From Chiloscyllium plagiosum (taxonomy: Eukaryota), in contig NC_057718.1 of NCBI RefSeq assembly GCF_004010195.1, positions 44,045,809-44,109,808 on the forward strand: 64,000 bases of DNA, read 5' to 3'. The notes beneath the pieces were generated by a model. The model made no database searches, had not been told where the DNA came from, and saw nothing but the letters and a program-made list of their open reading frames with translations. Shown here one piece after another: positions 15,513-52,700 of the stretch (position 1 is the first letter of the stretch; every line of letters begins with the position of its first letter). The translations under genes and the position numbers were made by a program.

Positions 15513-15845
15513 GTTACTTGGCAAGCTCCTTTGATGATAAATTGTGAAATCCTTCTTTTTGAAATTTCACATGCCTGATCCACACATCAGAATTGTGAAT
15601 ACCTCATAGTATGCTGCAATACATTGGGCTGGATCTATTCCCTTTTACCAATTATTCAGTAATGATTGTTATTTGCACCAGTGGTGGAGATTTGTAGGTG
15701 GTTGCACTGAAAGTTTGCCAACTGGAGTGATTACTCACCCCACAGTTCCTCAGGGTATTAGCTCTTTGGTTGTAAACCCTGTTAATGAGTCATTCATTAG
15801 TGTTTCATGGCAGCATCTCACAGGGCCAAATGGACCTAATATAAG
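15513..15845 (+). pseudogene. USH2A: USH2A exon (about human exon 42), three frameshifts
   Basis: Acceptor cttctttgcAG (15511-12). Reads VTWQAPLMINCEILLFEI / HMPDPHIRIVNTS / SMLQYIGLDLFPFTNYSVMIVICTSGG / FVGGCTESLPTGVITHPTVPQGISSLVVNPVNESFISVSWQHLTGPNGPNIR across three frame switches. Recalled human sequence: VTWKPPLIQNGDILSYEIHMPDPH...PFTNYSV...GGCTESLPTYVTTHPTVPQ...SWQPPSKPNGPNLR. The expected donor reads AG|GCATT. Confidence 0.93.
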
Positions 15846-17882
15846 GCATTATTTTACCACCCATTCATGCGGGTTCTTGAGAATTGTCCGATTAATATTT
15901 CAAAGCAATATTTTCAGAGCCATATTTGAATGATTCTGCTTTTTCTAAAAAAAACCTCAAATGTCATCAATCATAAGAGATGACCAATAGATCAAGAGAT
16001 ACAATGGAGAAAATTTTAATCTGAATGGTCTTATAACAGGCAAACTGCACTTGCCACTTGGCTATCATCATCCTCATGAGGCTTTACTTATTTTGAAGCC
16101 TGAACCTCAAACAAGAGTGGCCTCGAGCACTGTACATGTCACTCCTGTTGCTTTTGCTGAGTGCTGTGAGTCAAATGTTTGTACTGAGCTGGGTTTTCAT
16201 CCTACAGGCAAGTTGTGACAATTGGAAGTTTCCAGCCTTAGTCTATCAGCCTCAGGAGAAAGCTCCTGCAAAGTGGGGTTGTCATTCTGTGGATATGGAG
16301 GTATATTGGGATCAGTTCCTGAATAGAATTCACTTGACAGCCATAGGGGCTATTAGGTGCAGAGGCTCTGCTCAAAATTGGTTTGAGACTTTGTCCCGTC
16401 AGACTTTGTCATCCATTACACAGTTCCTCTGACCCTTTATGATGACCAGTGTTCCTCCCATGGCTCCTCATTCTCTTGATGCCAATCACTGTAAGATGAA
16501 TCCTCACCACAGCTCACCATGTTGTATGAACATTCTGGTAGATTTGCTGTCACCATGCGTCTTTTTTGGCATGGATTGACATGGCTTGTTTGTTCCAACG
16601 TGGTAGAGAAAAATTATTTAGTATTCTGACAAGAGTTTCTGTCATAACTACATGTAGCTTATTACATGATATTTGTAATGTGCAATTTAATTTAATATGA
16701 TAGATCATCTTTACATGGAGTATGAGGTAGACCCAGATAGCAGGTCTTTTTCCTTTGAGAACCTAAGTTATTTTCCCAATAAGTCCATATGACATTATCA
16801 TTTTAAAGGAACCCTTTGGCATTAACCCTTTCAGAGGCCTATGGCACTCTTCAACATTAATTCTTTCAGACTTCTAACCCTTATACAATGTTAACAAATG
16901 ATATTTCCATATCCATCCAGCCAGTATACATTCTGTACAGAAACTTCTGGTAACAATGTCTTGTGTGCTAAAGCATTATGAAAAATCATTCATTCATAAC
17001 TTTCTGGGAAAAAGAAAACTGCTTTTACTACAGCCCTGTAAAAAATTGTCAATCCAGCAGACCCTTAAAATATTTATAGCAGACACTGCAAACACTTGAC
17101 ACCCTTATCTTGTGTAAGCAACCACTGAGCAATGCAGAAATAGATCAAAGAGAAAAATCTATCAAATAAGCAATGATTTTCCTTGTTTTCTCAATCGGCT
17201 AATGAAAGTCTGGGCTGTGAGTTAAGAATGCATAACTAGCCTTTAATTAATTTAGAGATGTTTTGCATTATCCATAAATGTTCCAAATGTGCACCAGTAA
17301 GAACTTTGGTACAAACTGAAGTGCAAATTCAGATACAATTTATTTCAACATCAGGATTACAGTGATAGAAAGATGAGAAACTCAGATTAACCTCAGTTTA
17401 ACCAGTAAAAAATATTTTACTGGTCCTTGTCTAGTTATCCAGGATTGTCAGGCTTATATTGATGGGTTCAGTCCTTCAAGCAGTCAGATAAGTGCTCTAG
17501 CAAGTTCATTAAACAAACATGACTGAGGGTTGAAATAAAGCTCTCTGGGTTTCAAACCTTTGACTGCAATGGTAGAATATAAGGCTTTTAGCTTGGGATC
17601 ATCCAGCTGTGCTTTAAGAATGTTCATTGCTTTATGGAGTTCATATTTGCATTTTTAACATTATAGTTTTATGTAATATCAATAAAAATAACCTATGTAA
17701 TATAACATATGCATAATTAAAACCTAAATATTTTGTTAATACTATTCTGATACATAAAATTAAAGTTACAATTTAAAAAGAAAACAAAAATAAAATGTGT
17801 TAAATTTATATTTTTCTAACAATTATCAGTTGTTAGGAGCATTGGGTTTAATAATCATATTGTACAACCTGTGGTTTTTCAG

Positions 17883-18005
17883 ATATGAGTTGCTAAGGCA
17901 CAAATCCGAACAACCACTTGCATCAAATCCCCCTGAAGATTTAAATCTTTAGCTGAATATTTACTCAGGGACACAATTGTACTATGAAGATAAAGGTCTT
18001 AACAG
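17883..18005 (+). pseudogene. USH2A: USH2A exon (about human exon 43), in-frame TAG
   Basis: tttttcAG|...|GTtag, 123 nt. Reads YELLRHKSEQPLASNPPEDLNL*LNIYSGTQLYYEDKGLNR versus recalled human YELLRRKIQQPLASNPPEDLNRWHNIYSGTQWLYEDKGLSR. TAG at 17950-17952 replaces Trp. Confidence 0.95.
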
Positions 18006-21000
18006 GTTAGATTAAACTACATCAGCTTCAAACAAATTATGATTTGATTAGCAAATTAGTTAATAAGTACTGGGTTTCTGCTTTTCAGCATTTGTAATGT
18101 TTTGAACAACTACTTGTTGTATAAATGTATTTGGATTAAAATTAAACTGATCGACGTTTGTTTGCTGTTCTTAGAAGCTATCCTCACCTTACAATGATTT
18201 TGTTTTCCAGCCATATTCCATTATGAAACAATTTATTTGTATATAAGCAAAGTATGTTGTATTTTGAAACTAACAAACATCAAATATATGCAACGTGTCT
18301 TTTTGTTCCACATCATCACATTAAAATATAATTTAAATGCAACACACTCATGTTTTATGGATCTGTTAACACGATATGGGATGAATACTTGCAATGCTAG
18401 GCAACAGTCATTGAATACAACTTACTTCAAATTAATTTATGTTACAAGAAGAGTGGAAAATGTAAAGTCCTTTTCCCCTTCGTTGGCTTTAAATCAAACT
18501 GATGTATAATGTTTCTTAAACAATGGTAGCACGGATAGTTAAAAAGGGAAGAACTCCTGAAAAATAGAGATCTGACAATTCCAAATAGCCCTTTAGAAAA
18601 TGAGTGCATGGAAATCCTTTTTGTTGAATTATTATTTCTGTTACTAGGACATTACTAGGAGAATGTTGCTGACTGTGGTTAACAGAAGATGAACTAGAAT
18701 TCCATCAATCAATGTGTTGTGGCCAGAAATGTGACAAATTTCTGATAATTGTTGAGATTCAGCTCTGATTTCATATAACCAAACTTCCCCTGTTGCTCCA
18801 ATTAAAGTTATTCTTAGAACTGAAGCTTATCATCCACATTGTTAATGAGGTGTGTCATTGTAAACTGCTTTTCATTATTTGGGTAAGCATTTGCAATCTA
18901 TTTTCACTTTACAAGTTGATGATTATTAAAGGATAGAACTGCAGAAGTTAATCATCTAATAAAAAGGACTTTGGTAAAAGGAATATGTTTTCATTGCAGT
19001 CATTCATATATTATAAATCCTACATCCCAATTATGAATTAGATCATGATTCTATTTTGTTTTTGTGCTATATGGAGATTCCTACAAGTTAGAATGGAAGA
19101 ATTTAACTATAAGTTTTCAAAATTTGATTGTCAGTATTTCCTTCAAATTCCAAATAGTTATACAGAATTATCATTTTCTTTAGCATCTGTTTATTTATTT
19201 CTCTTTTTTTCATGTATCTTTTCCAATATATATGCTGTAACGCAATTTAGGTTTGTCAGTCAGGCTTATAGTATAGCACACTTGTGCATATTGGGAGCTA
19301 CATATCTTAATACGCAGAGGCTTATTCTTTGTAGACAGAAAGAACATGCAATTACATTGTGCCTGTTTCAATGTAACCACAGAGGCAACAGCCATTCTTC
19401 CGTTTATTCCTCAAGACAATGTTTTAGCCAATTAGTGTCAACTTGATTTTTAAAGAAATCTTGGAAATTAACTGCCAATTATCATATAAATGGTACATTC
19501 TCCATTGGCTGTACCAATGAGAGTCACTTCACATCCAATGGCACCCTGTTCTCATACAACATAACAAAATGATTTCCCTCTTTATATTAGTATCCTTGTA
19601 AACTATCCAGATCAGCATAAGACGAAAACTATAATCAAGCTCTGTGCTACTAAACAACTACTTGTTTCAGCAAATTTTAAAAATGTTACAATTGGCATTT
19701 GTAAATTTGTTTTTTTTTGCTCTTCTTTCAATCATCTTTCTGCCCTCTTCATTTCTCTTTTTGGTGTCATTGGCTGGACCAGAATTTATTGCCCTTGCAA
19801 ATGTGGTGGAGACCTGCCTGTTGGACCACTGCATTCCATGTGCTGAGGTATACCCACTGTCACTGGGGAGGGAATTTCAGGATTTTAACCCAAATATGTT
19901 ATGCAATTGCGATTGCACTTTTCCCTGTTAAAATTATCTCCCTAATTTTGGACTTATTTTCTCTACCTTTGCCTTTTTAGCTATTTAGTCTATCAAACTT
20001 CAGTCTTAGCATTTAGAAAATACATTTGCCCTTCATAGGACTTGCACATTTGCTAGGGCAATAACATTCTTAGGTTCCTTTTGAAATAATAGTTAACCTA
20101 TTTGTTTCTTCCTCTGCAAGTTTAGGTATATTTACATGCTGATTTTGCTAATCAATCAGCTTTGACATTCTTTTTAATATTATTAATTTCTTACATACTT
20201 TTTCTTAGCTACATAAGTTTTCATTGGAAATTTTTCATTGAAAAATTAATTGGGCCAGTAAGCTGTCAGAATAACTTTCTGTCATAAAAGACAGGGGGAA
20301 AGTATTATTATCCCCACTAACTGAGGCAATATTATTCTGACTCAGAAGTGATTTATCCGCTGAGATGCCACAATCAGTAAAGCCTGTTATTACTCAATAG
20401 ACAGTGGCTTATTAATTTCTTTAAGTAAATAAGTTTATTATATATATCTGACCAGAAGAAGAGAAAAAATATCACTCTTTAAAAAGAATTCTGATATTGG
20501 GTACCCTTGCTTTTCATGAGATTTAATACATTGGGCTCTTATGCTATTTGATTTAATGATCATAATTAAAGCAAATATTTATTTATCTGTCAAACGATAA
20601 CTAAGCAAATATTAATGGGGATTGCCTATTGTTGTTTTCATAGTAGGATATTTAATTTTGATTTTTTAATTTGAACGATCACTGAAAAGCAGTTCATTAT
20701 TAAGGTACTTTATAATTATAATGTGTTTAAAACATTCACAATTATTTTACTTTCTGCATTATTTATGAACTAAAAATTGTCAGTTGTAAGTTAATTTATT
20801 TACTTTAACACTAATATTCCTCTTTTCTGAGTTTGAACTGAATTCCAGTTCTATACAGATAATAGGCATTCTCATCCAAGTGGATCACCTTCAAATTTGA
20901 ACCTATTTCAGAAGGCTAGTCGATAAGAAGACCATTCTGTCATAGACCATGTATTCCGAGTCCAAACTTTAGCTGCCCCAACTGGAATTAGCTAACTGAA

Positions 21001-21289
21001 ATTGACCAGGGTTGGTTTCCTGATGCTGCTGTTCTTCACATCCCAAGTCCTCAGTATGAAAATTTGCCTTTGGAGCACAAGTATCCATTTTGTACAGAAC
21101 AATTAATCTAAAGACTGAGTTACAAGGGAGTCAGTAGCACATCCAATGGCGCCGATGATGATATAAATTGCTAGACTGAAGCTTAAGCAGCTTAATGCCA
21201 AGCTTGACATATCGGAACATGAGCAGTTCATTGAGTCTGCTTCATCATTCATTGCCCAATATCTCTTAATGCCTTTGAATAGAAACATT

Positions 21290-21585
21290 CCCAGATTTAA
21301 CATTCACAAGTGATTGAACATCCAAACTTATGCCAACTTTTCTGGGTAGAAATGTTTCCTAATTTGAGTCCTGCATGGTCTACCTGAAATGCTTGAACAA
21401 AACCACTTATTCTAGCATCGACAACTGGTGGAAATAATTTAGCTCTATCTATCATATCGCTTTTCTTTAATAGCTTGAAACTTTCAATCAAATAAGACCA
21501 TAAAATCTTAAAATGTGGGAGCAGAATTCAGGCATTTGGCCCATTGAGTCTGCTCCACTATGTAATCATGGCTGATAAGTTTCTC
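21290..21585 (-). mobile_element. Old CR1 3' fragments
   Basis: IESFKLLK..D.IDRAKLFP (ORF 21297-21491) and an adjacent 3'UTR/tail piece (21495-21585). Confidence 0.65.
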
Positions 21586-21586
21586 A

Positions 21587-22370
21587 GTCGAGATGTACTG
21601 CTGGAAAAGCAGGTCAAGCAGCATCCAGGGAGCTGGAGAATCGACCTTTCAGGTATAAGCCCTTCATCAGGAATGAAGCTTGTGGACCGGGGGNNNNNNN
21701 NNNNNNGTCGGAGAGGAGGGTGGAGTAGATAGGTAGGAAGGAAGATGGACAGGAGGACAAGTCAAGAGGATGATGCTGAGTTGGAAGGTTGGGACTGGGA
21801 TAAGGTGGGGACAGGGAAATGAGGAAACTGGTGAAATCCATATTCATCCTGGTGTGGTCGCAGGGTCCCAAGGTGGATGATGAGATGTTCTTCCTCCAGG
21901 CGTCGGATGATTAGGGTTTGGCAATGGAGGAGGCCCAGATCTGCAGTGTCCTTGGTGGAGTGGGAGGGGGAATTACAGTGTTGGGTCACTGGTGGAGTTT
22001 GTTGGTGCGGGTGTCCCAGAGATGTTCTTTGAAATAATCCACAAGTTGGCGTCCTGTCTCACCGATGTAGAGGAGACCCCATCGGGAGTAATGGATATAG
22101 TAGATGACGTGTGTGGAAGTACAGATAAATTTCTGTCGGATGTGGCAGGATCCTTTGGGGCCTTGGACAGAGGTGAGGGGGGAGGTGTGGGTACAGATTT
22201 TGCACTTCTTGCGGTTGCAGTGGAAGGTGCCGGGAGTGGGGTATGAGCTGGTGGAGGCGCGTGGATCTGACAAGGGAGAGAATGGTCACTCTAAAATGCA
22301 GATAGGGGTGGGGAGGGAAACATATCTCTCCCCACATATGGTGGGGTCTGTTTGTAGGTGGCAGAAGTGA
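21587..22370 (-). mobile_element. Penelope-like element 3' part: GIY-YIG endonuclease plus terminal repeat; contains a small N gap
   Basis: PGTFHCNRKKCKIC...FICTSTHVIYYI..SRWGLLYIGETGRQL...KEHL followed by RRLEEEHLIIHLGTLRP. The terminus matches the fold-back inserts at 4281, 6973 and 61525. Confidence 0.93.
21638..21675 (-). ncRNA. Minimal hammerhead ribozyme motif (mutated) in the Penelope terminus
   Basis: Minus strand cattc-CTGATGA-A-GGGC-ttat-ACCT-GAAA-GGTC-gattc. Confidence 0.65.
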
Positions 22371-22389
22371 CTTTGATGGTCAGCAGGGT

Positions 22390-23338
22390 TTTGTGCAGGG
22401 AGGTCTTGTGGAAAAATGTGAGTTTTTGCAGCTTGACAGGAATAACAGATTAACTGAACATTGGTTCAATGGGAAGAGACAGCAAAAAGCAGCAACACAG
22501 AGGGATTTTGGGGTTCTTCATGGATGGATCACAAAAATCTATAATCTAAATTCAAGGGATTATAAATGGACTCTTGGCCTTTATTTCAAAGGGAATGTAG
22601 TATGAAAGCAGGGAAGTGTTTCTCAAACAAGGCACATGACACAACACAGTTGAAATATCATGATCAGTTTTGGTCCCCTTATCTAAGGAAAGGTATTATT
22701 TCCATTGAAGGCAGTCCAAAGATTAAGCACGTTGAACCTGCTGATAGAGAGATCTTCTTATGAGGTTGGGTCTGCACTCACTAAAGTTTAGGAGAGTGGA
22801 GATAAGGGTTGTATGATTCTTAGAAAATTTCACAGAGTAAATGCAAAGATGTTGTTTACTTTTGTGGGTCTCTAGGACCAGAGGATATAACCTAAGAGTA
22901 AGGGGTCAGCCAGTTAAGTCAGAGATGAGGAGGATTTTTTTTTCTCTCAGTATATAGTCAATCTGTGAAATTCTTTACCACAGAGGGTTGACCTGGCAGT
23001 AACTCTGTGGTTACTGTTCCTGTCACCTACCAGCTCACCCTGTAGCCTGGCTATAATACAATGGGCTGCAGGCCAGACTCAAGCACCCTGCCTAACTTTG
23101 AACCAATGGAAGCCCTTTACTGGCCAATTAATGCCCACTGTCCACCTGACTGCTGTTTCTCAGCATATTAAAGGCTGAGATAGATATTTAATCAGTATGA
23201 GAATCAATGGTTATGGGAATAAGCAGGAAAGTGGACTTGAGGATTGTCAGACCAGCCATGATCACATCAAAAGGTGAAGCAGACTCAGTGAGCTGTATGA
23301 CCTACTTCTGTTTCTCTGCCTTATAGCCTTATGGTTTG
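22390..23338 (+). mobile_element. Old CR1 3' portion, interrupted by a 164-bp insert
   Basis: VEKCE, QRDFGVL and QFWSPYLRK motifs, then a 3'UTR and cttatagccttatgg tail. Confidence 0.82.
23001..23164 (+). repeat. 164-bp direct duplication, copy 1 (the inserted copy)
   Basis: Ungapped match to 24191-24354 with 7 mismatches by eye. Confidence 0.95.
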
Positions 23339-24142
23339 AGTGATGTGGAGTAAAAGATTAACTATACCTTTTTGTCTAATAATTGCTACTGACCATGTGC
23401 CTAAGGAGTTATGTCATAATGATATTAACTTACTTGGAACTGGGACCCAAGACTGTAGTGCTCATGAGATATCCTCAGTTATCACCCCACATGTACGTCA
23501 GTGCATAATAAACCCTACTCATGTCTACTTGCCTGAATGCAGTCTTGATCTTACTGGAGCCTTGGACTCAGCAAATAATAGTGGCCTGAGCAAAGCATAC
23601 TATATATCAGCAAGCTACCTTGACCGTTCTCCTCCACCTCTTCCTCTCCCCACCTACCAACCTCAAAATTCTGGAATTTGTTCATATTTAGTAACTTGCA
23701 TGTAACACTGCAGCTAGAGTTTCCCAATTTCTGTTCCATACGGATCTATTTATTTGGTAGTTTACAAGCTTCCAGAAGAGGGCATATTTAAATTAAAGTA
23801 CTTTCCCCTAATTACTCTGTATCCATGAAGGATATTGCTGATGCAAAGGCCAGTTTATGTTCATATGTGCATATAATGTAAAACAGTGTAACAAATATTT
23901 TAGAGTAGCTTGTAATCCTTTTTAAATTAAATAATTAATCCAATATTTAATTTAGAACCAAAGGGGATAGAAATAATGGATAAAATATAAGATGAAAGAA
24001 CCTCCTTAATAATCTGGCAAAGCTCCATGGAGTCATAATCCTCGAACACAATCTCCAAAGAGCCATAAGTTATATAATTCTATGAATATGGTTTGACTTA
24101 GCTTGAAATAAAATGATGTTGTATTTGATAGATACAAAGCAT

Positions 24143-24618
24143 TGGACAGAATTTCTGGTCCCCTGGTATGCCAGTAGAAAGGGCCTATAAAACTCTGTGG
24201 TTACAGTTCCTGTCACCTACCAGCTCACCCCCTAGCCTGGCTATAATACAATGGGCTGCAGGTCAGACTCAAGCACCCTGCCTAACTTTGCACCAATGGA
24301 AGCCCTTTACTGGCCAATTAATGCCCACTGTCTACCTGGCTGCTGTTTCTCAGCCTGATGTTTGAGGTCAACAATGGAATGCAATTCTGGAAAGTAGGTC
24401 AGCTCGGGCCTTGAGTACGAAAGGGAGGAGTGTTTCCTTCAAGTGTTATTTGCCATTCAGATGCCTACTGGCCTCTCCCCTCCCCCCAACTGTTCCCACA
24501 TCCACGTCTTTTCTCTCCCAGGTGTGGTCTCCACATCAGACCTGTTTATCCTGATTCCTGCTCCCCATCATTCAGTGCTCAAAGCAAGAAACCCCAGCCC
24601 CTGTCAAATCCTGCCCAT
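24143..24618. mobile_element. Possible old MITE-like element
   Basis: Imperfect terminal inverted repeats tggacagaattt / aaatcctgccca around a GC-richer body. Confidence 0.4.
24191..24354 (+). repeat. 164-bp direct duplication, copy 2 (the likely source)
   Basis: Matches 23001-23164 and lies inside a longer old repeat. Confidence 0.95.
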
Positions 24619-24763
24619 TGTTTAACTTAGATGCTTACAGTTAAAATTTTATGAACAAAATACAATCTTCTTTGCTATTTTTAGTAAATGTTAATTACTC
24701 TATGAGGGCTAGTCAGCCTTGATCGTTTATCAAATGTCATTTTTTGCTCTTTTTAAATTAAAG

Positions 24764-24966
24764 CTTTGTGAGAATTGGAAGGAAATGTGGAATATTACAT
24801 CCTGTATATCAATTCAACTTCCTATCGAGACTTTGTGTTATCCAGCTGATGTGAACCATCCTTTGATCGATGATTTGCATTCAAATGCAGATATTTTTCA
24901 CTGAGGTCTTCAATGGAATCCATAGTGCTATGAGCAAGGTGGTGCAGGGGACAATGTCTGATGGGG
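24764..24966 (+). pseudogene. USH2A: USH2A exon (about human exon 45), nonsense codon plus two frameshifts
   Basis: AG at 24762-63, donor GTtagt at 24967. Reads L*ELEGNVEYYILYINSTSYRD / YPADVNHPLIDDLHSNAD / IFFTEVFNGIHSAMSKVVQGTMSDG versus recalled human VQDLQGEVEYYTLF...PDVNSHVIGHLKPN...IFISVFNGVHSINSAGLHATTCDG. TGA at 24769-24771. Confidence 0.9.
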
Positions 24967-25822
24967 GTTAGTAAAATCACTGATGTTCAAAACTGTTTAA
25001 AATCTGAGAATAAATGTGATTGATTTTTGTGGAGGTTGAAATCAGTCATCCATCCATAATAAAATTTCCTGTTATTGAAGGAAAATAGCTAAAACGCTAA
25101 AATCCTTAAGTGCTGTTGTCATCAAGTGATGGATCAATAAGGGTCCCAGTGAGACAGTTGCAGATAGCTCTAATAGAGTATATTAGCACAGTTTGTTCAG
25201 ATCTTCCCTTGTGTGCCAGTGTATATCCACACTGCTGTTCGGAAAATACAATATGCTCTGTCAATAAATGGGAGAATATAAAAACGATTAATATTTTAAG
25301 TGATTTCTTCTACAGCTTTTAGGCAGGCGAATGTGGAGAGTTGATGTTTGAACATTTCTACAAAATAAATCTTCTTCTGAGGTTTTCAACCTGCCTCCAC
25401 GTGCCTGTGGAGAGGGAAAGGCTCGGGTGAGCATCTGCATTAAAAAGCCTTGTCTTGCCAACTTGAGAATGTAAGAAGTAAAGCAGAATGATGGACTTTG
25501 TGGCTAGGAATGAACCAGATAGCTTTGTACCTATCCCATTATACAAGTTTGCAGGTAGTCATTTGCAGAAGTCTCTGCTCTGGCTGGTGGTGAGTTTGGA
25601 GGTAGGAATCTGTATTTAGACTGGTGGTGGTTGACCTAAACCTCACCACCCTCCCACATCTACCAGAATTAAGTTCTGGATGGGATAATCCATGACAATT
25701 GTCTTACCCACTGTCAATAAATGATCAAGTAATGGTCACATGCATGTCTTATTCCACTGCTGCAGGAATTACCACAGCTACAGTTGGCCCTGTCACTTTG
25801 TGGTTGCAAGGCGGCTATGCCA

Positions 25823-27140: not shown

Positions 27141-27213
27141 AAAACCAGAAGTGTCAAACATCCTGTTCACACTGAAAATAAAGAAAATAAAGAAAAAGCA
27201 AGAAAAGAGGAGA

Positions 27214-40570: not shown

Positions 40571-41760
40571 AAGGATAGACCAGATCTAAAAGTTGAAGTT
40601 ATAAATTGGAGAAAGGACAATTTTGACGGTGTTAGGCAAGAACTTTCAAAAGCTGATTGGAGGCAGATGTTCGCAGGTAGAGGGACGGCTGGAAAATGGG
40701 AAGCGTTCATAAATGAGATAAGGAGAATCCAGAGAAAGTATATTCCTGTTAGGGTGAAATGAAAGGCTGGTAGGTATAGGGAATGCTGGTTGGGTAAAGA
40801 AATTGAAGTTTTGGTTAAGAAAAAGAAGGAAGCATATGTCAGGGATATACAGGAGAAATCAAGTGAAGCCTTAGAAGAGTATAAAGGCAGTAGGAGTATA
40901 CTTAAGAGGGAAATCAGGAGGGCAAAAAGGGGGCATGAGATAGCTTTGGTAAAGAGAATTAAGGAGAATCCAAAGGGTTTTTACAAATACATTAAGAACA
41001 AAAGGGTAACTAGGGAGAAAAAAGGGCCCATCAAAGATCAGCAAGGCGGCCTTTGTGTGGAGCCACAGAAAATGGGGGAGATACTAAATGAGTATTTTGC
41101 ATCAGTATTTACTGTGGAAAAGGACATGGAAGATATAGAATGTAGGGAAATAGATGGTGACATGTTGAAAAATGTCCATATTACAGAGGGGGAAGTGCTG
41201 GGTGTCTTGAAACGCATAAAGGTGGATAAATTCCCCAGGACCTGATCAGGTGTACCCTAGAACTCTGTGGGAAGCTAGGGAAGTGATTGCTGAGCCTCTT
41301 GCTGAGATATTTGTATCATTAATAATCATAGGTGAGGTGCCAGATGACTGGAGGTTGGCTAACATGGTGTCACTGTTTACAAAGGGTGGTAAGAACAAGC
41401 CAGGGAACTATAGACCAGTGAGCCTGACATCGGTGGTGGGCAATTTGTTGGAGGGAATCCTGAGGGACAGGGTGTACATGTATTTGGAAAGGCAAGGACT
41501 GATTAGGGATAGTCAACATGGCTTTGTGCATGGGAAATCATGTCTCACAAATTTGATTGAGTTTTTTGCAGAAGTAACAAAGAGGATTGATGAGGGCAGA
41601 GCAGTAAATGAGATCTATATGGACTTCGGTAAGGCATTCGACAAGGTTCCCCATGGGAGACTGGTTAGCGAGGTTAGATCTCATGGAACACAGGGAGAAC
41701 TAGCCAGAACTGGATACAGAACTGGCTCATAGGTAGAAGACAGAAGGTGGTGGTGGAGGA
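40571..41760 (+). mobile_element. CR1 ORF2 internal segment (linker plus RT N-terminal half)
   Basis: ENPKGFYKYI...LNEYFASVFT; PGNYRPVSLTS...SQHGF..GKSCLTNLIEFF...YMDFGKAFDKVPH. Confidence 0.95.
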
Positions 41761-41799
41761 TATCTACCTGCGACTGGATTCTCGTTATCTCAGAGCAGG

Positions 41800-41915
41800 C
41801 TCAACAAGTCCACACTGACCCTCTGAAGAGCAACCCACCCAGATCCATTCCCCTACATCTAGCCCTTCACCTAACACTATGGGCAAGTTAGCATGGCCAA
41901 TTCACCTAACCTGTA
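41800..41915 (-). mobile_element. HE1 SINE 3' fragment
   Basis: caacaagtccacactgacc...tagcatggccaattcacctaacctg matches the HE1 body. Confidence 0.8.
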
Positions 41916-43380
41916 CAGCCAACAATGGCCTAACCAATGTCCTATGTAGCTGCAACATGACCTCCTTACTCCTGTGCTCAACACTCTGACCAATAAAGGA
42001 AAGCAAACCAAATACCTTCTTCACTATCCTAACTACCTGTGACTCCACTTTCATGGAGCTATGAACCTGCACTCCAAGGTCTCTTTGTTCAACAACACTC
42101 CCCAGAACCTTACCATTAAATGTACAAGTCCTGCTAAAATTTGTTTTCACAAAATGCAGCACCTCGCATTTATCTGAATTATATACCATCTGACACTTCT
42201 CAGCCCATTGGCCCATCTGATCAAGATTCCGTTGTAACCTAAGGTAACCCCTCCTCTCTTGCCTCCCTTTCTATCCTTCCTGATAGCATTTGTATCCTGG
42301 AACATTAAGCTGCCAGTCCTGTCCATCCCTGAGCCATGTTTCCGTAATTGCTATGATATCCCAGTCCCATGTTCGTAACCATGCCCTGAGTTCATCTGCC
42401 TTCCCTGTCAGGTCCCTTGCATTGAAATAAATGTAGTTTAATTTATCACACCTACCTTGTTCTCTGCTTTATCCCTGCCTGCCCTGACTGTTTGACTTGC
42501 TTCTATTGTCAACTGTACCAGTCTCAGGTTGATCTCTTTCCTCACTATCTCCTTAAGTCCCACCCTTCCCCCCACCTTACTAGTTTAAATCATCCTGAGA
42601 AGCTCTAGCAAATCTCCCTGCCGGTATATTAGTCCCCTTCCAATTTAGGTGCAATCCGTCCTTTTTGTACAGGTCACTTCTACCCCAAAAGAGATTCCAG
42701 TGATCCAAAAATGTGAATCCTTCTCCCATACATCAGCTCCTCAGCCATGCATTCATCTGCTCTATCCTCCTATTCCTGCCCTCAGTAGCTCGTAGTACCT
42801 GGAGAAATCCAGATATTACTACTCTCGAGGACCTCCTTTTTAAATTCCTGCCTAACTCTCTGTAATCCCCCTTCAGAATCTTAACCTTTTCCCTCCCTAT
42901 GTCGTTGGTTCCAATGTGGACAATGACTTCCTGCTGGCCCCCCTCCACCTTGAGAACATTCTGCATCCTCTCTGAGACATCCTTGTTCCTGACACCAGCA
43001 AAACACCATTCTGGTTTTTCATTGCTGGCCACAGAAACGTCTGTCTATACCTCAGGCTAGAGAATCCCCTAACACAATCAATCTCTTGGAACCCAATGTA
43101 CCTCTCATTGTATTAGAGCCAGTCTCAGTACCAGAAGCTTGGCTTTTCGTGTTACGTTCCCCTGAGAATCCATCACCCCTTACATTTTCTAAAACAGCAT
43201 ACCTGTTTGAAATAGGGATAGCCACAGAAGACTTCTGCATTAACTGCCTACCTCTATGACCGTTCTGGGAGTTAACCCATCTATGTGACTGTATCTGCGA
43301 TGTTTCCCCCTTCCTATAACTGCTATCCACCACATCCCCTTGCTCTTGTAAATTCTTCATTGCCTCTAACTGTCTCTTGT
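41916..43380 (-). mobile_element. Internally deleted CR1 LINE (ORF1 esterase, ORF2 start, RT C-terminal piece)
   Basis: IPISNRYAVL, LIVLGDSLA and VIVHIGTNDIG...VVISGFL (SGNH); an endonuclease start near 42430; then WAEKCQM.YNSDKCEVLHF...QRDLGVQVH. Confidence 0.92.
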
Positions 43381-44247
43381 TCAGTGACTGATTGAAGTTC
43401 CAGTAGAAACCACCATTCAAAGCTAGTACTGCTGAGGCTCCAGAATGGCTGGACAGACAAATAAGGTCAACTCAGAAAAAAACAAGTTAAAATACCGGAG
43501 GCTCTCAGTTTAAAACATTGTAGACATGGTAGCCATGGAAGCTGTGTGAGTATTCTGTCAAATGCATTAAGTATAAACTTCGAAATCCTTCTAGCATATG
43601 CCAGTGACAGGCAATAATGGAAGCAGAGATTCCTTATCAGCCTTGTGTTGGAAAGAAATTGGAGTTCTTACTGTCACTATCCATAGCTGCAGGCCACAAT
43701 ATTCATGTTAAATTCAATGCTTCCACAGCAACTCAGAATCCTTGAAGGGCCAATTGGTTCAGTTGACTGGATAGTTGGTGAGGAACAGATTGATGACAGT
43801 TGTGGGGGGAGAGGGTTGATTTTTGTTCCAGCTGGAATGGACTTGGGCTCTGCCCCTTCATCCTACTTGTAGTAGACTCTGTGGACTTGTGGGTCAGACC
43901 TATCTTCAGTGACAGAACTCAAATCTCAAACAAGCAGCATCAGTAAGAATAATGGGCTAGTGGAACGCATTCACATTTCTTATAAAGATGCACAAAATAT
44001 TGCAACATAAGGGGTTAAGTATTTGATGAACCAATATCCAAACACATCCTTTTGTGTTTTCTTTGAATGTTTAGACTAATCAGATTCTTTTTAAATGCAG
44101 GCTGAAGTACAATCTCCCAATTAACTTGAGAGTGGTTGGAAGTAGTGGTAGTGAACAGGTATTGATGTACATTAGAAGAATACATGAATACATATTCTAA
44201 AATTCATCAGGAAATTTGTAAAATTAAACTTAGTGACTTAAGTTTAG

Positions 44248-44366: not shown

Positions 44367-44789
44367 TTGACTGTTGTAAAGTAGGCATAGAGCAAGTTGC
44401 AAATAGCTTACTAAAATAATATTCTTTAAAATATCCATATTGATGCCTGATTCACATGAATCCAATGAAAGGATTTGAAAACCCAATAACTGAAAAGTGC
44501 GAACATAGTTGTAGTTTATTTGATTTAGTTGATAAATATTTGATTTAGTTGAGAAATATTTCTCTCAGAGAAATATTGTCTTATTAAGATTGACTTTACT
44601 AATTTAGGCTACTAATGTGTCTTCTCTGACTCTGACTTGAACATTCTCTTTTTGGTTTCATACATATTTCAGTAAAATAACCAGATATGCATTGAACCAT
44701 TTTTAAGTTTAAATGCTCACTCATATTTCATTAACTAACTGGTTTTGGTGACAGCTGGAATTTAGACTGTTTTTCCTCTTCATTTATAG

Positions 44790-44992
44790 AGCCTGAAGGC
44801 ATACTACCTCCAGAGGTCAATGTGATCAATAGTACAGCTGTTCATGTCATCTGGACATCACCATCAAAACCAAACAGTCTTGTCACCGAATATTCTATTC
44901 ATGTGAATAAAAAGCAGCATAATACAGATATGCATTTACCCGGGCCTTTTATATTGACAGACCTTTATCCATTTACTGTATATAAGATAAAG
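44790..44992 (+). pseudogene. USH2A: USH2A exon (about human exon 46), reading frame open
   Basis: tttatAG|...|GTagga, 203 nt. Reads (E)PEGILPPEVNVINSTAVHVIWTSPSKPNSLVTEYSIHVNKKQHNTDMHLPGPFILTDLYPFTVYKIK versus recalled human EPQGMLPPEVVIINSTAVRVIWTSPSNPNGVVTEYSIYVN...LSPFTIYDIQ. Confidence 0.95.
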
Positions 44993-45641
44993 GTAGGAGT
45001 GATTCTTTTAATATATCAAACAATATTACAGATCAGGTATTTCATGCTTTCCAGGTCTTCTCCATGTGCATTTTAATATTTTACCTTTTTTTCTATTTCA
45101 GGATTTTAGACTTGTCATACCATGCATTTTGCATTGATATAAAGCACTTTGAATTTTGACTTAGTTTTCACAGTGTAGTACAACTCTGACATGCAGTCAC
45201 CAATATCTAATGCAGGCAGACAAAGTTAGACTACCACATGGTAGTGCACTCATACCAGCTTGATTCTACATCAGATACAATATTAGTCCAACTGATGTGA
45301 TGCAAAATTTTAAAAGCTGTACAATAGTCTAATAGATTGCCCAAAAAGTTTAAAAGTTCATTTTAACCTGTTTGTCTGAAGGTTAGCGATCTTATTTGTG
45401 TGAAGAATTACAGTTTCCTTAAATGGATAGCAAACAGCATCCAGCAGGATAAGTCGAACCTTCCCTTCCAGTCATTACCAGCTTCAACTACATCATTCTA
45501 AACATCAATTATATGTGTATTTTAACCAGATTTTCATTTCTCAGTACTTATTTTTGCCTTCTGGTTTGTTATATTACTTTTGGATCTTTTTAAATATCTC
45601 TTTACAGAAGAATGACTCATCAAAATAAATAGTTTACCGTG

Positions 45642-46845: not shown

Positions 46846-47476
46846 GTGCTATCCTTGCTAAATTTTAAACTAAATGTTTGCACATATTTATACTCAATGT
46901 TTTGGCATATTGTTTTTGCAACTTGCAGTCCTTTGTTTATGTATCAGCACAAGGAAAAGACTGAATCTATCCTGTTCTACAATATTCCACATCCCGTTAG
47001 GCAAATAGGCAATAGTACTTGTGTCATCAATAGATCTGCCTGCAGACAGTGGCACCTGCTTTCTGCTTGAAGTTGTACATGTTGAACCAGGACGCAGTGG
47101 GCAATCCCACAATGAATAATTGCAAAGAAATCTACAAATCACTAAAGGATATAAAACTGGTGATTATTATGAATGACTGCTATCTGTTATGTACTATTTT
47201 ATATTTTCCAGTCATTCATTTTTTGAAAAGGCAGTTTTTCATGTTTAATCATGAATCCTCCATGACTCAAAGAAAGTAGAAAGAATAAGACATTATGAAT
47301 TTCCTTGGTTGTATATCAACGGCTGGAATGTATAATTTGCATGCTTTCCATTTGCTTCTGAAAGTAAGAATAAGATGCATGCTTGTTGGGTTTGATTTAA
47401 CGCAAACAAATTCAAATTTTATTCAGGAATTTTTGAAAAGGTAATGCATTTTTTGTGATCTTTTATACATAATTAG

Positions 47477-47589
47477 ATTGAGGTATGCATACTATATGGC
47501 TACACTAAAAGCAACAATACCCAAGTCACCACCCTTGAACATAAACCATTTAATATAGCTGCACCTCATATACATGTCATGAAGTCAAG
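47477..47589 (+). pseudogene. USH2A: USH2A exon (about human exon 47), reading frame open
   Basis: aattAG|...|GTaagt, 113 nt. Reads IEVCILYGYTKSNNTQVTTLEHKPFNIAAPHIHVMKSR versus recalled human VEVCTIYACVKSNGTQITTVEDTPSDIPTPTIRGITSR. Confidence 0.92.
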
Positions 47590-48291
47590 GTAAGTAAAAT
47601 TTCCTATATTCAAAAAAAATTGCCATAACAATGATTTGGATTTAAACTGCAGTTTACCTTTTACGGAATGTAAGTGCTGTCCCCTTAGCTGTATTTGTTG
47701 CCATTACCAAATTTGAGGGCCAAATCCTCAAACAACAGATTGTGTAAAAACCTTCTCAAGAGTAATTGGAGAAAGGCACCAAATGCTGGCCTTTCCAGCA
47801 ATACTCACATTCCATGAGAGAATACATTAACCTTCCAGATAGGCAGCTATCGTAACTTGTAGACATGATTTCAGAGATGTGTTGCACTTTAGTGGCTGGG
47901 CAGAATGACATAGATGCATCAAGTTCCCCTCCAAACGGAAAAACCTGCTCTGTGATTTATGTGTGGGTCATAGTCTGAAGGGAAAACCTACATTTTCTTA
48001 TAACTGCTTCCGTTGGCCTGCAGAAATAGTTCTGACATTTCTTTGTAAGAGATTATCCTTATTACCCACTGCATTTAACTGATCAGAGCATTCAGAGTAT
48101 CCCTGCAAGTGATGTGTCTTTCATGCTGCCACAAACTACACCCAAAGGCACTTACAGCAATGATTATAGCAAGCTAGCCAGTACAGTTCATACAATTACA
48201 TTTTTCCAAACACTCACTTGTCATAAAATAACAAAAAATGTATTTGCTATTATTTACAGTTACAAATAATGCAGTGTACCCAGCACCTTAT

Positions 48292-48842
48292 CCTAAGATA
48301 TTGGAACAGAACTAGACAATTCAGCCCATCAGGTCCTCTTTGCCTTTCAATGAGATTATGGCTGATCTAATACTCTTCAACTCCACTTTCCTGTCTTATA
48401 CCTAAAATACTTGATTCCCTCACTAATTACAAAACAGTCTACTTCAGCCTTGAATAATGACTTAGTGACATTGCCTCGACAGCCCTTTGCAGTAAGGAAT
48501 TTCACAGACTGACTACTGTCTGAGAGAAAAAAATCTCTCCTCATCTTAAGTAGGCAAACCTTTACTGTGAGATTATGCCATTTTGTCTCAAATCTCCCCA
48601 CAAGGGGAATAAGACATGTCTGCATCTACCTTGTCAAGTCCTCTAAGAATCTGATATGTTTCAAAAAGATTTCCTCTCATACTTCTAAACTCCAATGAAT
48701 AGAACCTAAATCTGCTCAACCTATTGTTTTAGGAAAAATCTTCCATTCGTGGGATCAACCTAGTGAAACTTTTCTGAACTACCTCTCAGACCTGTATATC
48801 TTTCCTTAGATAAGGGGACCAAAATTGTTCACAGTACTCTAG
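48292..48842 (-). mobile_element. Old CR1 3' fragment
   Basis: QFWSPYLRKDI on the minus strand (~48800-48830), PLVGRFETKWHNL, and a 3'UTR. Confidence 0.85.
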
Positions 48843-49539
48843 ATCATGGTCACGAGCACACATTTAATTAAGAAAAAGCTACCAATTAATTAGTTACATT
48901 GACACTTTCCTTTCACTTTATATTCTATTTAATTACACCTAAGCTGAGTTATTCCCATTTGATGTGTCATTTCCTTGTCTCTTAGTGGGCCACCCAATTA
49001 GTTTCCACACTATCTGATTCAGGAGCTCAGGAGGAACCTTTCTAAACTAAAATTGTGATATCCTTAAAACAGAAATTAAGTATTACCACTTCAGTGACCT
49101 GCCAAGTCACGTGTCTAAGTCTCAATACCCCTATTGCTGCCTCCATTGTCTCTTGACATGTTTGACTAGGGCAGGAGCCAGCTGTACAGGAGAAAGAGAA
49201 GGAACATAGCAGCACTTTCTCTTCTTGTCAGGCTTTACCCCATCCTATTTATTCCAGCAATCTTGGATATGGTGACCAAGACAGTTGCAGTGGAACTAGA
49301 AAATTTGGGTATGTTTTCTTGACAAAGGGTTCTTATGTGGCCCAAATATCTGACAGGCAAGGGCTCTTAGCAGTCTTTCCTGAACACTTGTAAAGGCTAT
49401 TAGGGATGTGACCCAGGTTGTAATAACACAATGTCTCAATTCATCACAGTGCATTATTATATTGTTGTAAACTCTCAATGCGCTATGGACTAATAATGTG
49501 TTCCCGTAAGCTGTACAGCTTTGCGTGTGCAGCTATTCC

Positions 49540-50130
49540 AATGTTCCAGCAGCCAATCTGCATGTCAACATGAATTGCATCATTGACTTCCAGTTCCAGA
49601 AGTTACTGCCACGCCAGAAGTCCATGTGGAAGAAAAACAAATTAGAGGAAACACTGCACTGATATCTGGAGCCCTTTCAGAAAGTAGTTCTTGAAATGTG
49701 GAGAGTCACAGTATTCAACTCAATCCAGGTCTTCTCTCTACATTGACCAGGTCTTCCAATAACAGCCATGAAGCCTCTCTGCAAATACTTGGGGAATTAT
49801 TTGGTACTGACTAATCCCTGGTGGAAATCGATTGTTCTTTCTCTAGTTCATCCTCCAGAGCAGAACTTTGGTATAGTGTTCCAGTTCACTTCCAGTTCTC
49901 CAAAGAGGATCTGTTTAAAATCATCTCTCTCCAAATCTGGATGTGAGATTCTGAGCATTTCCCATTTTGGCAACAGGAGGAGGATGTTGCATCTTATATC
50001 TAATGTAATATCCAGTTCTTCTCTCAAGGCCCTAAGACATAGGTAACAAGGGTCTATTTGTGCTTGAGGACTCTTTTTCCTGCTCACTTCTAAACATAAG
50101 TCGCTTGCACTGCCAGCTTAGTTGACTAGT
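49540..50130 (-). mobile_element. Ancient RTE-like LINE relic
   Basis: CLRA...LDIR and KQILFGEL motifs (ORF 49848-50087); heavily decayed. Confidence 0.4.
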
Positions 50131-50824
50131 GCCATTCTACTCGAAAGAACGGCAATGTTGGACATGAAGCTTATAACAAAGACCACAAATTTTATGCCCA
50201 GAATGACATTTGATGCAGAAAAGCTAAAGAGCTGATGATTAGCATGAAAAGATAATGATATTTTGGAGGGAAAGAAAGGGCTTAGTTCTCCAGTCAGCAA
50301 GTAACCTGGACTTTTCTTACAGGGCTGAGGCTGCAAAGCATTCATCACCAATTTGATCTTGGTGGCAAGAGCTTTAATTCTCTTGACATTTAATTGATGG
50401 TAGCTTTATTTATTCCTAATGTCAAATTGAAGTAATTGTTATCAAGCTGCCCAGTAGTCAATCATATGAGAGAATTTTCATGCACAGCCAACCAGGAAAT
50501 AAAGAAGCTGCTTTTTATAAAGTTTTACTGACACCATCATAAATAATGCATTGGACAGATGGGGTTAAAATAGAAGCTGAAATATTAAGAACAAACTTAG
50601 AAGAGAATTGTTTAGAAATCCAGTTTAAAATACACAAATTGGAGACATTGAAAAACATCCCACCCTATAACATGATATTTCAGTGACCAATCAGCTGTTT
50701 ATATACAGATTATCACTAAAATACCAGTTATGTAGAATAAGACACTTTTTGTAGGTCTTGTTACAGTGATACTAAAGCAGAAAAGGGGCTGTTCTTACTA
50801 AACCTGTTGATTTTATTGAAAGGT

Positions 50825-51480
50825 GCTTTTTAAATTTGTTCATGTGACGTGGACATTGCTGGCTAGGCCAGTATACATTTTCGATACCTAATTCCTCTTG
50901 AGGAGGTAGTAGTGAGGTGCCTACTGTACTACTGTAATATTACAATCCACACACGATGCTGTTAGGAGGGGAGCTCCAGGATTTTGACACCATGATATTG
51001 AATGAACGGCAACATAGTTCCAAGCCAGGATAGTTTGTAGCTTGAATGGAAATTTTGAGGTGGTCATGCTCCAATGGATCTGCTGCCTTTGCCCTTCAAG
51101 AGGATCAAATTTGTGGGAAGTGTTCCTGCCAATTTTTTGTTTTGCTTCTGAACTTCTGAGTTTTATGCACAGCAGCAATTTCCAGAACTATCAATGCTGT
51201 GTTCAACGTTGACATGCTGAAAGTCATGCATGGAATGTTGGAGTGACTGTCTATGTATGCAGTTGCACAGCTTAAGGGGAACATTGGTTTGGGTCGACAT
51301 GGTGTACCCTTTGGTGGCAAAGTAAATGACAGGCCACACTTCAGAGTTTCTATGTTGATCTACACTGGGGCTAAGTTGTGAGGTTGAGGTTAGATTCAGT
51401 GGGTAGTTGAGAACTAGCTTGATGTAATTGAGAAACAGACTGAGACCACAGACAGGATGAATAGAACGGTCACCATTATA
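50825..51480 (-). mobile_element. Old CR1/L2-like LINE fragments
   Basis: The 3' terminus matches 6675 and 54900; decayed internal sequence follows. Confidence 0.6.
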
Positions 51481-51514
51481 AAACTCAAAAAGACTAACAT
51501 ATGAATCTGATCCC

Positions 51515-51990
51515 CAAAACTTAAATAAAGCAATCAAGAGAAAATACTACCCTTTACGCACATTGAAGATGTGATAGAGGAGATGTCTAATGAAAAGTCT
51601 TCTCAGTGTTGGATGCAAACCTAAGACTTTGGAAATTCAACTTTATGATGAAAGCTGCAAACCTTTGAACCATGAGAACACTATTTGGAAGATTTAGATC
51701 CAAAAGCCTACCAAGGGAGCTGCATCCAACAACTCCAGAAGTGTTCCAGAAGTGCATCACTTAAAGGCTGATAGGTCAGGAAACAGTTGTAAACATTATA
51801 GATGTGATGCTCATTTGGGGAGAAAACACAGAGCATGATAACAAGAGACTGAAGAACTTCTCAACAGAATCAGAAAATGTGATTTGAAATTGAACAGGAC
51901 AAATGCAAGATTGGGATGAAAGAGATCAGTTACATCAGATACATGTTAACTGCAGAAGTCCTGAAACCAGACAAAGACAAAGAAAAGTAC
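51515..51990 (+). mobile_element. Ty3/Gypsy reverse transcriptase relic
   Basis: Frameshifted AIKR..Y, IEDVI, TLFGRFR, PEVFQK, MLIWGE, and KCKIGMKEISYIRYMLTAEVLKPDKDK. Confidence 0.8.
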
Positions 51991-52009
51991 TGGGAAAGGA
52001 AACCATTCT

Positions 52010-52432
52010 CCTCACTTGGCCTGGCCAATATATGCCTCCAGACCCCCAGCTACTGCCCTGACTTGCACACAATGTCCCAGATCAACACCATTACATCCAA
52101 CACAACTTGCAACCTCACAATCTGGGAAATTCCCTTTTACGTTTAAAGAAGCATCAGGAACAACAAAGGCAGCAGATACATGGGAACACCACCATCTGCA
52201 AATTCCCATCCCAAGCCACTGGCCATCCTCTTTTGGAAGTTTATCACCTTCACTGTTGCTAGTTCAAAATTGTGGAAATCCCCCCCCAAAGGGCATTGTA
52301 GGCCAACCTACAACACGAGAATTGCAGTGGCTCAAGAAGGCAGCTCACCACCATGTTCCCAAGGGCAACTAACGACAGGCAATAAATGCTGGACAGCCAG
52401 CAACGCCCACACATAGAATTGAATAAAAAGAA
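52010..52432 (+). mobile_element. Old CR1/L2-like LINE 3' fragment
   Basis: gcagcagatacatgggaacaccacc...cagtggctcaagaaggcagctcacc...caataaatgctgg terminus. Confidence 0.75.
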
Positions 52433-52578
52433 TCACAGCAAACCTCAAGCATCATCATTTAAAAACACTCACAGTCAGGGCTCTTATTTCATAGTTGGGA
52501 GACATTTTGTTCTTTTTTCTTTACTTTATGCTTTTCTTAATTGTCATATTATTATCTTTTCCTGCAGTTTCCTAATAG

Positions 52579-52700
52579 ATCACTAAAGATTGATCAATTG
52601 CCCCAACATTTCTGGCCATGGCCTACATGTGCCCTGAGTAGTTCATTTATTTGCCATGGTAGATTTGTTAGAGTGGAATTTAATCAATAGATAATTCATT
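52579..52700 (+). pseudogene. USH2A: Possible degraded remnant of the next USH2A exon (about human exon 48); end uncertain
   Basis: A long pyrimidine tract ends in taatAG (52577-78) with the correct phase, then (R)SLKIDQLPQHFWPWPTCA versus recalled human RSLQIDW...WKTWYPCA. The match is short and would need an internal deletion. Confidence 0.45.

Follow-up and report, generated by a model that had tools for sequence, protein, structure and literature searches.

USH2A as a probable old unitary pseudogene in a galeomorph shark lineage

Introduction

Loss of USH2A leads to the commonest form of human deaf-blindness, and no gene is more often mutated in Usher syndrome and recessive retinitis pigmentosa. 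The mouse Ush2a knockout reportedly shows progressive photoreceptor loss together with moderate hearing loss. USH2A gene models are found from cnidarians to mammals, and among cartilaginous fishes intact usherins are available from Scyliorhinus canicula, S. torazame, Mustelus asterias, Cetorhinus maximus, Carcharodon carcharias, Heterodontus francisci, Pristiophorus japonicus, Heptranchias perlo and Callorhinchus milii, with gene models of 5,200-6,050 residues and presumably open frames. Lineage-specific losses of cone opsins and other visual genes have been described in sharks and rays in the available portions of two comparative studies (PMC11886822, PMC12361510). Our literature search found no report of USH2A loss in sharks, and none of the shark papers that it returned names usherin. 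The only other vertebrate relaxation of the gene that it found is in blind burrowing mammals: in the accessible text of Prudent et al. 2016 (PMC4948712), USH2A is one of the genes whose divergence is raised in these subterranean species. No usherin model from a ray or skate was among the best 120 matches of a search for usherins.

Here we analyse part of the USH2A locus of a galeomorph shark, contained in a window of 64,000 nucleotides (the whole stretch of DNA under study, to which positions refer unless a contig is named). The locus resembles the intact cartilaginous-fish usherins in being collinear with them, in combining laminin N-terminal and laminin-EGF parts with FN3 repeats, and apparently in its position next to an ERR-type gene, whereas it differs from their presumably open frames in carrying at least 33 stops and frameshifts. 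Like the opsin losses, this is a case of sensory-gene loss in cartilaginous fishes found by comparative genomics; as far as the available text of those studies goes, the opsins are phototransduction receptors, whereas usherin is a structural extracellular protein of photoreceptors and hair cells. With the subterranean mammals the shark shares relaxed constraint on USH2A in one vertebrate lineage, but those mammals have degenerate eyes and, in the accessible text, raised divergence only, whereas the shark gene is thoroughly broken. Both the knockout mouse and this shark, as read from its genome alone, would be without usherin, the former through an engineered null and the latter through a fixed natural loss, and the shark lineage must therefore tolerate or compensate for it. 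This lineage is not, to our knowledge, known to be blind.

Results

Usherin exon remnants in the window

Using tblastn with a catshark usherin fragment (P0001) and with sawshark, chimaera and alligator usherins as queries, we found five usherin exon remnants in the window, all on the + strand and in protein order, with E-values from 5e-28 to 4e-9 (Table 1). Lesions were called from frameshift-aware alignments and plain translations. Exon A carries three frameshifts, near 15567 (+1), 15604-15607 (+4) and 15689 (-1). Exon B has a TAG codon at 17950-17952, where all orthologues compared have Trp. In exon C a TGA lies at 24769-24771 (Gln in orthologues) and frameshifts lie near 24838 and 24893; this TGA is a lesion only with the acceptor AG at 24762-24763, as use of an alternative AG at 24771-24772 would leave it in the intron. 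The count is the same as in the original prediction: five frameshifts and two nonsense codons, spread over three of the five exons. No site among these seven lies in a homopolymer of more than five bases, the longest being five T beside the frameshift near 24893.

Table 1 USH2A exon remnants and the intron interval between exons B and C, in window coordinates
Feature	Positions	Strand	Observation
USH2A exon remnant A	15513..15845	+	part of FN3 repeat; catshark P0001 ~308-417
USH2A exon remnant B	17883..18005	+	39/42 residues match sawshark usherin
Intron interval, exons B-C	18006..24763	+	expected exon for P0001 residues 459-515 not detectable
USH2A exon remnant C	24764..24966	+	TGA and two frameshifts
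USH2A exon remnant D	44790..44992	+	open frame; FN3 repeat; single genome match
USH2A exon remnant E	47477..47589	+	open frame; donor GTAAGT

Exon order and most splice sites had been said to persist, and they do: nine of the ten splice dinucleotides are canonical (acceptor AG in 5/5, donor GT in 4/5), the exception being a GC donor at 15846-15847 of exon A, whose acceptor AG is at 15511-15512. Exon D scores 33.2 bits against the Pfam fn3 model, for which the cut-off is 25; its conserved PNG motif reads PNS here. In exon E, VCILYGY stands in place of the VCTVY.C of the catshark and sawshark references, so that the second Cys of the motif is replaced.

In the intron interval that separates exons B and C, a repeat of very high copy number occupies ~21500-23400, and there are 13 N at 21694-21706. 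The best matches in this interval to the missing exon for P0001 residues 459-515 scored 27-36 and fell within the repeat, and a search of the assembly gave no match either (best E 0.21). Usherin had been proposed to extend over 15513..52700; the remnants bear this out as far as 47589, whereas 47590-52700 contains nothing usherin-like, the best match being 14 residues long (51568-51609; score 35-46) and at noise level. Residues 3154-3219 of S. canicula usherin had no matching exon in 47590-64000; the exon or exons that encode them may lie beyond the window. A search of the window against Rfam gave no matches.

Genomic neighbourhood and copy number

The neighbourhood of USH2A comprises ESRRG on one side and KCTD3 on the other. 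Two exons encoding an ERR-type DNA-binding domain, matched best in PDB by EsRRA, ERR gamma and ERR2, lie on the window's contig (C9) at C9:43,210,224 and 43,212,606, on the same strand as USH2A and ~200 kb upstream of it. NCBIfam, a prokaryote-oriented library, assigned no family to these exons. Linkage of ESRRG and USH2A in other vertebrates is described in the accessible part of PMC7617844. The locus thus appears to occupy its ancestral chromosomal place beside an ERR-type gene, as expected for ESRRG-USH2A synteny. Of the two neighbours named in the original prediction, the KCTD3 side did not emerge: no Pfam BTB_2 match was found near the 3' end of the locus, where the domain may be split over small exons.

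We found no second copy of USH2A in the 3.56-Gb assembly. Eleven of the 29 genome matches to P0001 lie off C9, and these are only 25-34% identical; an N-terminal search placed all USH2A-like exons on C9 but one, which sits on an unplaced contig and marks the assembly as imperfect at the locus. All other genome matches are to FN3 or laminin-type genes at 25-49% identity. The locus could in principle be a dead duplicate of a functional USH2A that lies elsewhere, unassembled or too diverged for detection, since the long-query genome searches used a stricter first filter that could miss a diverged second copy and the assembly may not contain the whole genome. This reading is very unlikely given that the locus has kept its introns and its place beside the ERR-type gene, that exons searched singly match this locus or nothing, that sequencing run X1 shows no alternative letters in the exons despite the admission of contigs at >=85% likeness, and that lesions at the locus are common to a related organism (below).

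Decay along the whole gene

Along contig C9 we aligned 25 exon remnants, the five in the window and 20 outside it, spread over ~884 kb and collinear with residues 10-4628 of S. canicula usherin (2,162 aligned codons); the locus spans at least C9:43,412,977-44,296,453. These exons, taken from ~3-kb loci returned by the genome searches, are about one third of the total, which is roughly 72 in the human gene. The N-terminal exons match the laminin-type region of sawshark usherin, upstream of the FN3 arrays, as expected from the domain make-up of the protein. Introns of 2-20 kb with AG/GT boundaries lie between the remnants. Introns, splice boundaries and the ~884 kb span rule out a processed (retrocopied) pseudogene.

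The earlier reading of USH2A as a decaying pseudogene holds for the gene at large, with 33 disabling lesions (15 frameshifts and 18 stops) in 17 of the 25 exon remnants, a count that leaves out six events near alignment ends and one stop at codon 12 (single reference) and makes no use of the stop flags of the genome searches. The ATG exon has one frameshift and two stops, the laminin N-terminal and laminin-EGF exons are also broken, and the large 3' exon has both stops and shifts. The original prediction had left it open whether the long isoform or the whole gene was lost, and these exons point to the whole gene. A protected short isoform is ruled out by the broken N-terminal exons.

Lesion-free exons number eight of 25, against 8.7 expected under uniform decay, and no sub-isoform therefore looks protected. 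Use of the locus in a reduced form, for example through a short product from the N- or C-terminal end or through non-coding transcription, would fit the eight open remnants, the canonical splice dinucleotides in the window and one exon in which a pair of shifts restores the frame after 64 bases. We consider it even less probable than a duplicate, since the open exons are no more numerous than chance predicts, the ATG exon and the large 3' exon are both disabled, and conserved Gly, Cys and Trp residues have been lost in open exons too.

Loss of constraint and phylogenetic placement

At columns invariant in nine intact full-length orthologues, the remnant is changed at 148 of 636 (23.3%), whereas four intact sharks put to the same test are changed at 1.7-2.8% of such columns. 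Replaced residues in the remnant include 10 of 53 invariant Cys and six of 27 invariant Trp. Over 2,010 columns, identity between intact sharks from different orders is 84-88%, in contrast to 68-70% between the remnant and these sharks. In the tree the remnant falls among galeomorph sharks, at the position that the accepted phylogeny of this group gives to carpet sharks (Orectolobiformes), which narrows the earlier assignment to a shark or ray. Its terminal branch of 0.343 substitutions per site is three to five times longer than those of sister lineages from the same node (0.063-0.107). Taken together, these comparisons indicate that purifying selection on USH2A has probably been lost in this shark lineage.

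Independent contigs and related organisms

Read support was assessed from contig summaries. Contigs from run X1, which may be the sample that was assembled, cover exons A-C, and none of the listed X1 differences is exonic; one further substitution and one deleted letter lie at unlisted positions between 15400 and 19792, and for exon C the contig covers 24329-25000 with 0 gaps. For exon B, a contig from run X5 (the same organism, another study) covers 17611-18111 with 0 differing letters, so the stop is present there as well. These independent contigs keep the lesions and do not show open frames.

Comparison with related organisms pointed the same way. A contig from organism C (run X17) spans 15551-16334 with only one extra letter; therefore two +1 shifts in exon A, and hence at least two of its frameshifts, are common to both organisms. 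Organism B lacks 23 letters at unlisted positions within 15400-16397. Organisms B and C each have one extra letter at an unlisted position somewhere in ~24330-25000. In these two organisms the individual lesions are confirmed only in part. Within the limits of the contig summaries, the lesions are real and fixed, and are neither assembly errors nor rare alleles.

The remaining explanation, in which the gene is intact and its frameshifts and stops are mistakes of assembly or sequencing, is the least likely of all and close to refuted. An assembly of 101,977 contigs does have local flaws, such as the USH2A exon that sits on an unplaced contig and an A-rich intron tract at ~17770-17795 whose length differs by 12 letters from that in the read contigs. 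But errors do not account for 18 point stop codons or for changes at 23% of the invariant residues, the lesion sites in the window avoid long homopolymers, the window agrees with contigs from two studies and from another organism, and the same assembly elsewhere holds a 5,734-residue open frame (17 kb).

Discussion

We conclude, with a probability of roughly 0.9, that the window is part of a galeomorph shark's one orthologous USH2A locus and that this locus is an old unitary pseudogene that no longer encodes usherin. In the history that we propose, the coding sequence would have drifted without constraint for most of the lineage's separate existence, so that neither the long transmembrane nor the short secreted isoform would now be encodable. 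Exon order, introns and most splice signals would still be recognisable in the dead locus because sharks change slowly. The loss would be older than the lineage's divergence from one related organism at least and, by branch-length reasoning, probably dates from the early history of this shark order. An annotation warning follows: gene predictors may patch the broken locus into a "low quality" usherin model.

A broader proposal, to which we give somewhat less than even odds, places the loss of usherin over 100 million years back, on the stem lineage of the whole shark order, so that all living members would lack usherin and keep its partner ADGRV1. An ADGRV1-like locus at C2:47.48-47.75 Mb has eight Calx-beta matches and one EPTP match on one strand within 270 kb. 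Eight of its nine sampled domain matches are free of stops, a measure of intactness that consists solely of genome-search stop flags, which are noisy, as matches overrun exon ends and about a quarter of 7tm_2 matches are flagged. ADGRV1 is one large gene with many Calx-beta repeats and an EPTP/EAR region that ends in an adhesion-GPCR 7TM domain; none of the 147 7tm_2 matches listed lies near this cluster.

These sharks would build the photoreceptor periciliary and hair-bundle links without usherin, and the lineage would be a natural USH2A knockout with working eyes and hair cells. If so, vertebrate photoreceptors and hair cells can last for life without the protein. Comparison with catsharks, which have kept the gene, could show what compensates, whether the ADGRV1-like gene or another matrix protein, and such compensation is directly relevant to ideas for treating USH2A disease. 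If the loss did occur in the stem of the order, every living member would therefore build its periciliary complex and hair-bundle links without usherin, which would mean that a major vertebrate lineage either does not need usherin or has another protein in its place. The members of the order have functional eyes, ears, lateral line and electroreceptors, and the order would then offer a natural model for a USH2 complex that works without usherin.

Usherin exons in the window

Used as a query, the open frame at 44771–44995 matched an incomplete usherin from the catshark Scyliorhinus torazame (P0001) at 72% identity. Using tblastn with this protein, and then with sawshark, chimaera and alligator usherins, we located five exon remnants (A–E) in protein order within the window, which is C9:44,045,809–44,109,808 in an assembly of 3.56 Gb and 101,977 contigs. 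Exons were called with a purpose-written frameshift-aware protein-to-DNA aligner and plain three-frame translations. Exons A–C are broken and exons D and E are open, the Pfam fn3 match for exon D passing. All five splice acceptors are AG and four of the five donors are GT (exon A has GC), i.e., nine of ten splice dinucleotides are canonical. The damaged usherin exons of the original prediction were thus recovered, with the reservation that the TGA of exon C is exonic only if the upstream one of two neighbouring AGs is the acceptor. No homopolymer at the seven window lesion sites exceeds five bases, the longest being five T adjoining the frameshift near 24893. An exon for residues 459–515 of P0001, expected between B and C, was undetectable there and across the assembly.

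Features of the USH2A locus, the window and other regions (window coordinates unless a contig is named)
Feature	Location	Strand	Observation
Exon A	15513–15845	+	Frameshifts near 15567, 15604–15607, 15689
Exon B	17883–18005	+	39/42 residues as in sawshark usherin; TAG 17950–17952 where Trp expected
Exon C	24764–24966	+	TGA 24769–24771 for Gln; frameshifts near 24838, 24893
Exon D	44790–44992	+	Open; conserved Gly lost (PNG to PNS)
Exon E	47477–47589	+	Open; conserved Cys lost
ATG exon			One frameshift, two stops
Laminin N-terminal exons			Three stops in one, one stop in another
Laminin-EGF exon			Broken
Large 3′ exon (L024)	C9:44,295,174–44,296,453		Broken; +1 and +2 shifts 64 bases apart restore frame in an exon that otherwise bears stops
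Cysteine-rich exon remnant (L008)	C9:44,130,032–44,130,253		3′ part continues into a (TG)n microsatellite, translated CVCVCVCVC
Exon remnant (L037)	G000:C96568:17790–17999	−	Sawshark residues ~339–408; lesion-free
ADGRV1-like domains	C2:47.48–47.75 Mb	one strand	Eight Calx-beta matches, one EPTP match
FN3-rich region	G000:C7:43,017,919–43,061,154		Holds an uninterrupted open frame of 5,734 residues; 25–30% identical to usherin FN3 repeats
Very high-copy repeat	21500–23400		Summed contig depth ≥10^5 in 4/4 runs, ~20–40 in flanks
N run	21694–21706		13 bases
LINE-like open frame	29682–31313		Contains the 730-base N run
N run	30404–31133		730 bases
Retroelement fragment	40763–41732	+	Head to head with next; RVT_1, 39.5 bits (Pfam)
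Retroelement fragment	41902–43471	−	
Open frame	42733–43044	−	Resembles GDSL-type esterase (25.8 bits) and OSK (24.7 bits), both under curated cut-offs

Among the other elements of the window, the longer N run lies inside an open frame and may therefore stand for withheld sequence instead of a gap in the assembly. The first ORFs of some LINEs bear an esterase, cf. the minus-strand frame at 42733–43044.

Support from read contigs

Sampled words of 15400–25000 occur at half or more in eight runs of the source shark (organism A) from two studies, and at 30–44% in twelve runs of two other organisms (B and C). Contigs of four runs were compared with the window at a likeness threshold of 85%. Those of run X1 (organism A) differ from the window by 7 substitutions and 13 gap letters over 15400–19792 and by 2 substitutions, without gaps, over 24329–25000; no difference with a known position is exonic, one substitution and one deleted letter having no stated position. 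Twelve of the gap letters agree with a 12-letter length difference seen within 17611–18111 in X5 (organism A, other study), which probably sits in the A-rich intron tract 17770–17795. X5 spans exon B without a differing letter and therefore confirms the TAG independently. Because X17 (organism C, 3.3% diverged) spans 15551–16334 with only one extra letter, both +1 frameshifts of exon A must be present in organism C as well, whether or not the −1 shift is; at least two lesions are common to the source shark and a related organism. In X9 (organism B), 23 missing letters within 15400–16397 are unplaced and thus uninformative for exon A. Of the 29 substitutions in that interval, exon A with its 333 bases carries at least 10, an indication from sequence comparison that the exon may be conserved no better than its flanking introns in organism B. 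The exon C region has one unplaced extra letter in organism B and one in organism C.

The locus beyond the window

P0001 matches the assembly 29 times, with 18 matches in protein order on contig C9 within 44,006,394–44,296,378. A search with residues 1–679 of sawshark usherin locates the 5′ exons on C9, starting at 43,412,977, so the locus covers at least 884 kb. This N-terminal query also matches one exon (L037) found only on an unplaced contig; therefore, either the C9 locus has a hole or a haplotig has split away. Aligned to S. canicula usherin, the five window exons and 20 remnants outside the window comprise 2,162 codons. After exclusion of the events at poorly aligned ends (5 frameshifts, 1 stop) and of a codon-12 stop supported by one reference only, 17 of the 25 remnants carry lesions, namely 15 frameshifts and 18 stops. 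With the ATG, laminin N-terminal, laminin-EGF and large 3′ exons all broken, the proposal that USH2A is a pseudogene is borne out. Lesion-free exons number 8, vs. 8.7 expected for an evenly spread 0.0153 lesions per codon, and thus neither the short nor the long isoform looks protected.

The locus might instead be a dead duplicate of USH2A. Several observations argue against this: (i) Introns are kept. (ii) No other USH2A-like locus, intact or otherwise, was found in the assembly, where the remaining 11 P0001 matches are to FN3 genes just 25–34% identical. (iii) X1 contigs have no alternative letters in exons despite the 85% threshold. (iv) Two exons of an ERR-type (estrogen-related-receptor-like) nuclear receptor, closest in the PDB to EsRRA, ERR gamma and ERR2, are found ~200 kb upstream and share the strand of the locus. 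A paper on ERR genes states that in jawed vertebrates ERR gamma has USH2A, a single-copy gene, as a direct neighbour (PMC7617844). The arrangement is consistent with the expected synteny on this side; KCTD3, the other expected neighbour, was undetected in a Pfam BTB_2 search of the 3′ side. General assembly error is argued against by the uninterrupted frame on C7, used solely as an assembly-quality control, and by point stops and replaced invariant residues, unlike the signature of indel errors.

Relaxed constraint and age of the loss

In the 2,010 alignment columns in which the remnant, i.e., the concatenated USH2A coding sequence left in the source shark, has a residue, intact usherins from sharks of four to five orders are 84–88% identical pairwise, vs. 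68–70% for the remnant and each of them. The remnant is changed at 148 of 636 columns (23.3%) that are invariant across nine intact full-length orthologues (four sharks, gar, paddlefish, chicken, frog and axolotl), including 10 of 53 Cys and 6 of 27 Trp; the same leave-one-out test gives 1.7–2.8% for the four intact sharks.

In a maximum-likelihood tree (LG+G4), the sister group of the remnant consists of basking shark and a smooth-hound–catshark clade (ultrafast bootstrap 97), and horn shark falls outside (support 100). This is the position of carpet sharks in the galeomorph tree. The remnant would then belong to the carpet-shark order, although a long branch can mislead placement. The terminal branch of the remnant has a length of 0.343 substitutions per site, vs. 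0.063–0.107 for its sisters from the same node, a ratio of 3.2–5.5. Assuming a normal usherin dN/dS of ~0.2–0.3, a ratio near 4 suggests that constraint was absent over about 70–100% of the branch, in which case the loss would be ancient and should be common to most of the order.

Discussion

Named usherin models exist for the chimaera Callorhinchus and for sharks of five orders: Carcharhiniformes (Scyliorhinus, Mustelus), Lamniformes (Cetorhinus, Carcharodon), Heterodontiformes (Heterodontus), Pristiophoriformes (Pristiophorus) and Hexanchiformes (Heptranchias). The best 120 of 290 matches include no carpet-shark, ray or skate model, a weak and annotation-dependent negative, though the database does contain a PTPRQ model from a sawfish. 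The missing batoid models may reflect ranking or annotation, or batoids may merit the same check. In openly accessible full-text papers, we found no report of USH2A loss in sharks; the nearest precedent there is USH2A among the raised-divergence genes of blind mammals (Table 1 of PMC4948712).

The Calx-beta and EPTP matches on C2 are the domain combination of ADGRV1, and the locus is therefore called ADGRV1-like. Eight of the nine domain matches are without a stop, in open frames of 80–297 residues, and none of the 147 7tm_2 matches listed lies near the cluster. This small sample of nine shows no sign of decay, and a working ADGRV1 may be retained.

Given the lesions, at least two of them shared with a related organism, the lack of a second copy in the assembly, the relaxed constraint and an ERR-type gene as neighbour, we consider it highly probable (about 0.9) that USH2A is a real unitary pseudogene in this galeomorph shark, one that is old, thoroughly decayed and still at its ancestral position. 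These animals would appear to manage without usherin. As lineage-specific gene loss the event is of an ordinary kind; it is noteworthy for which gene was lost.
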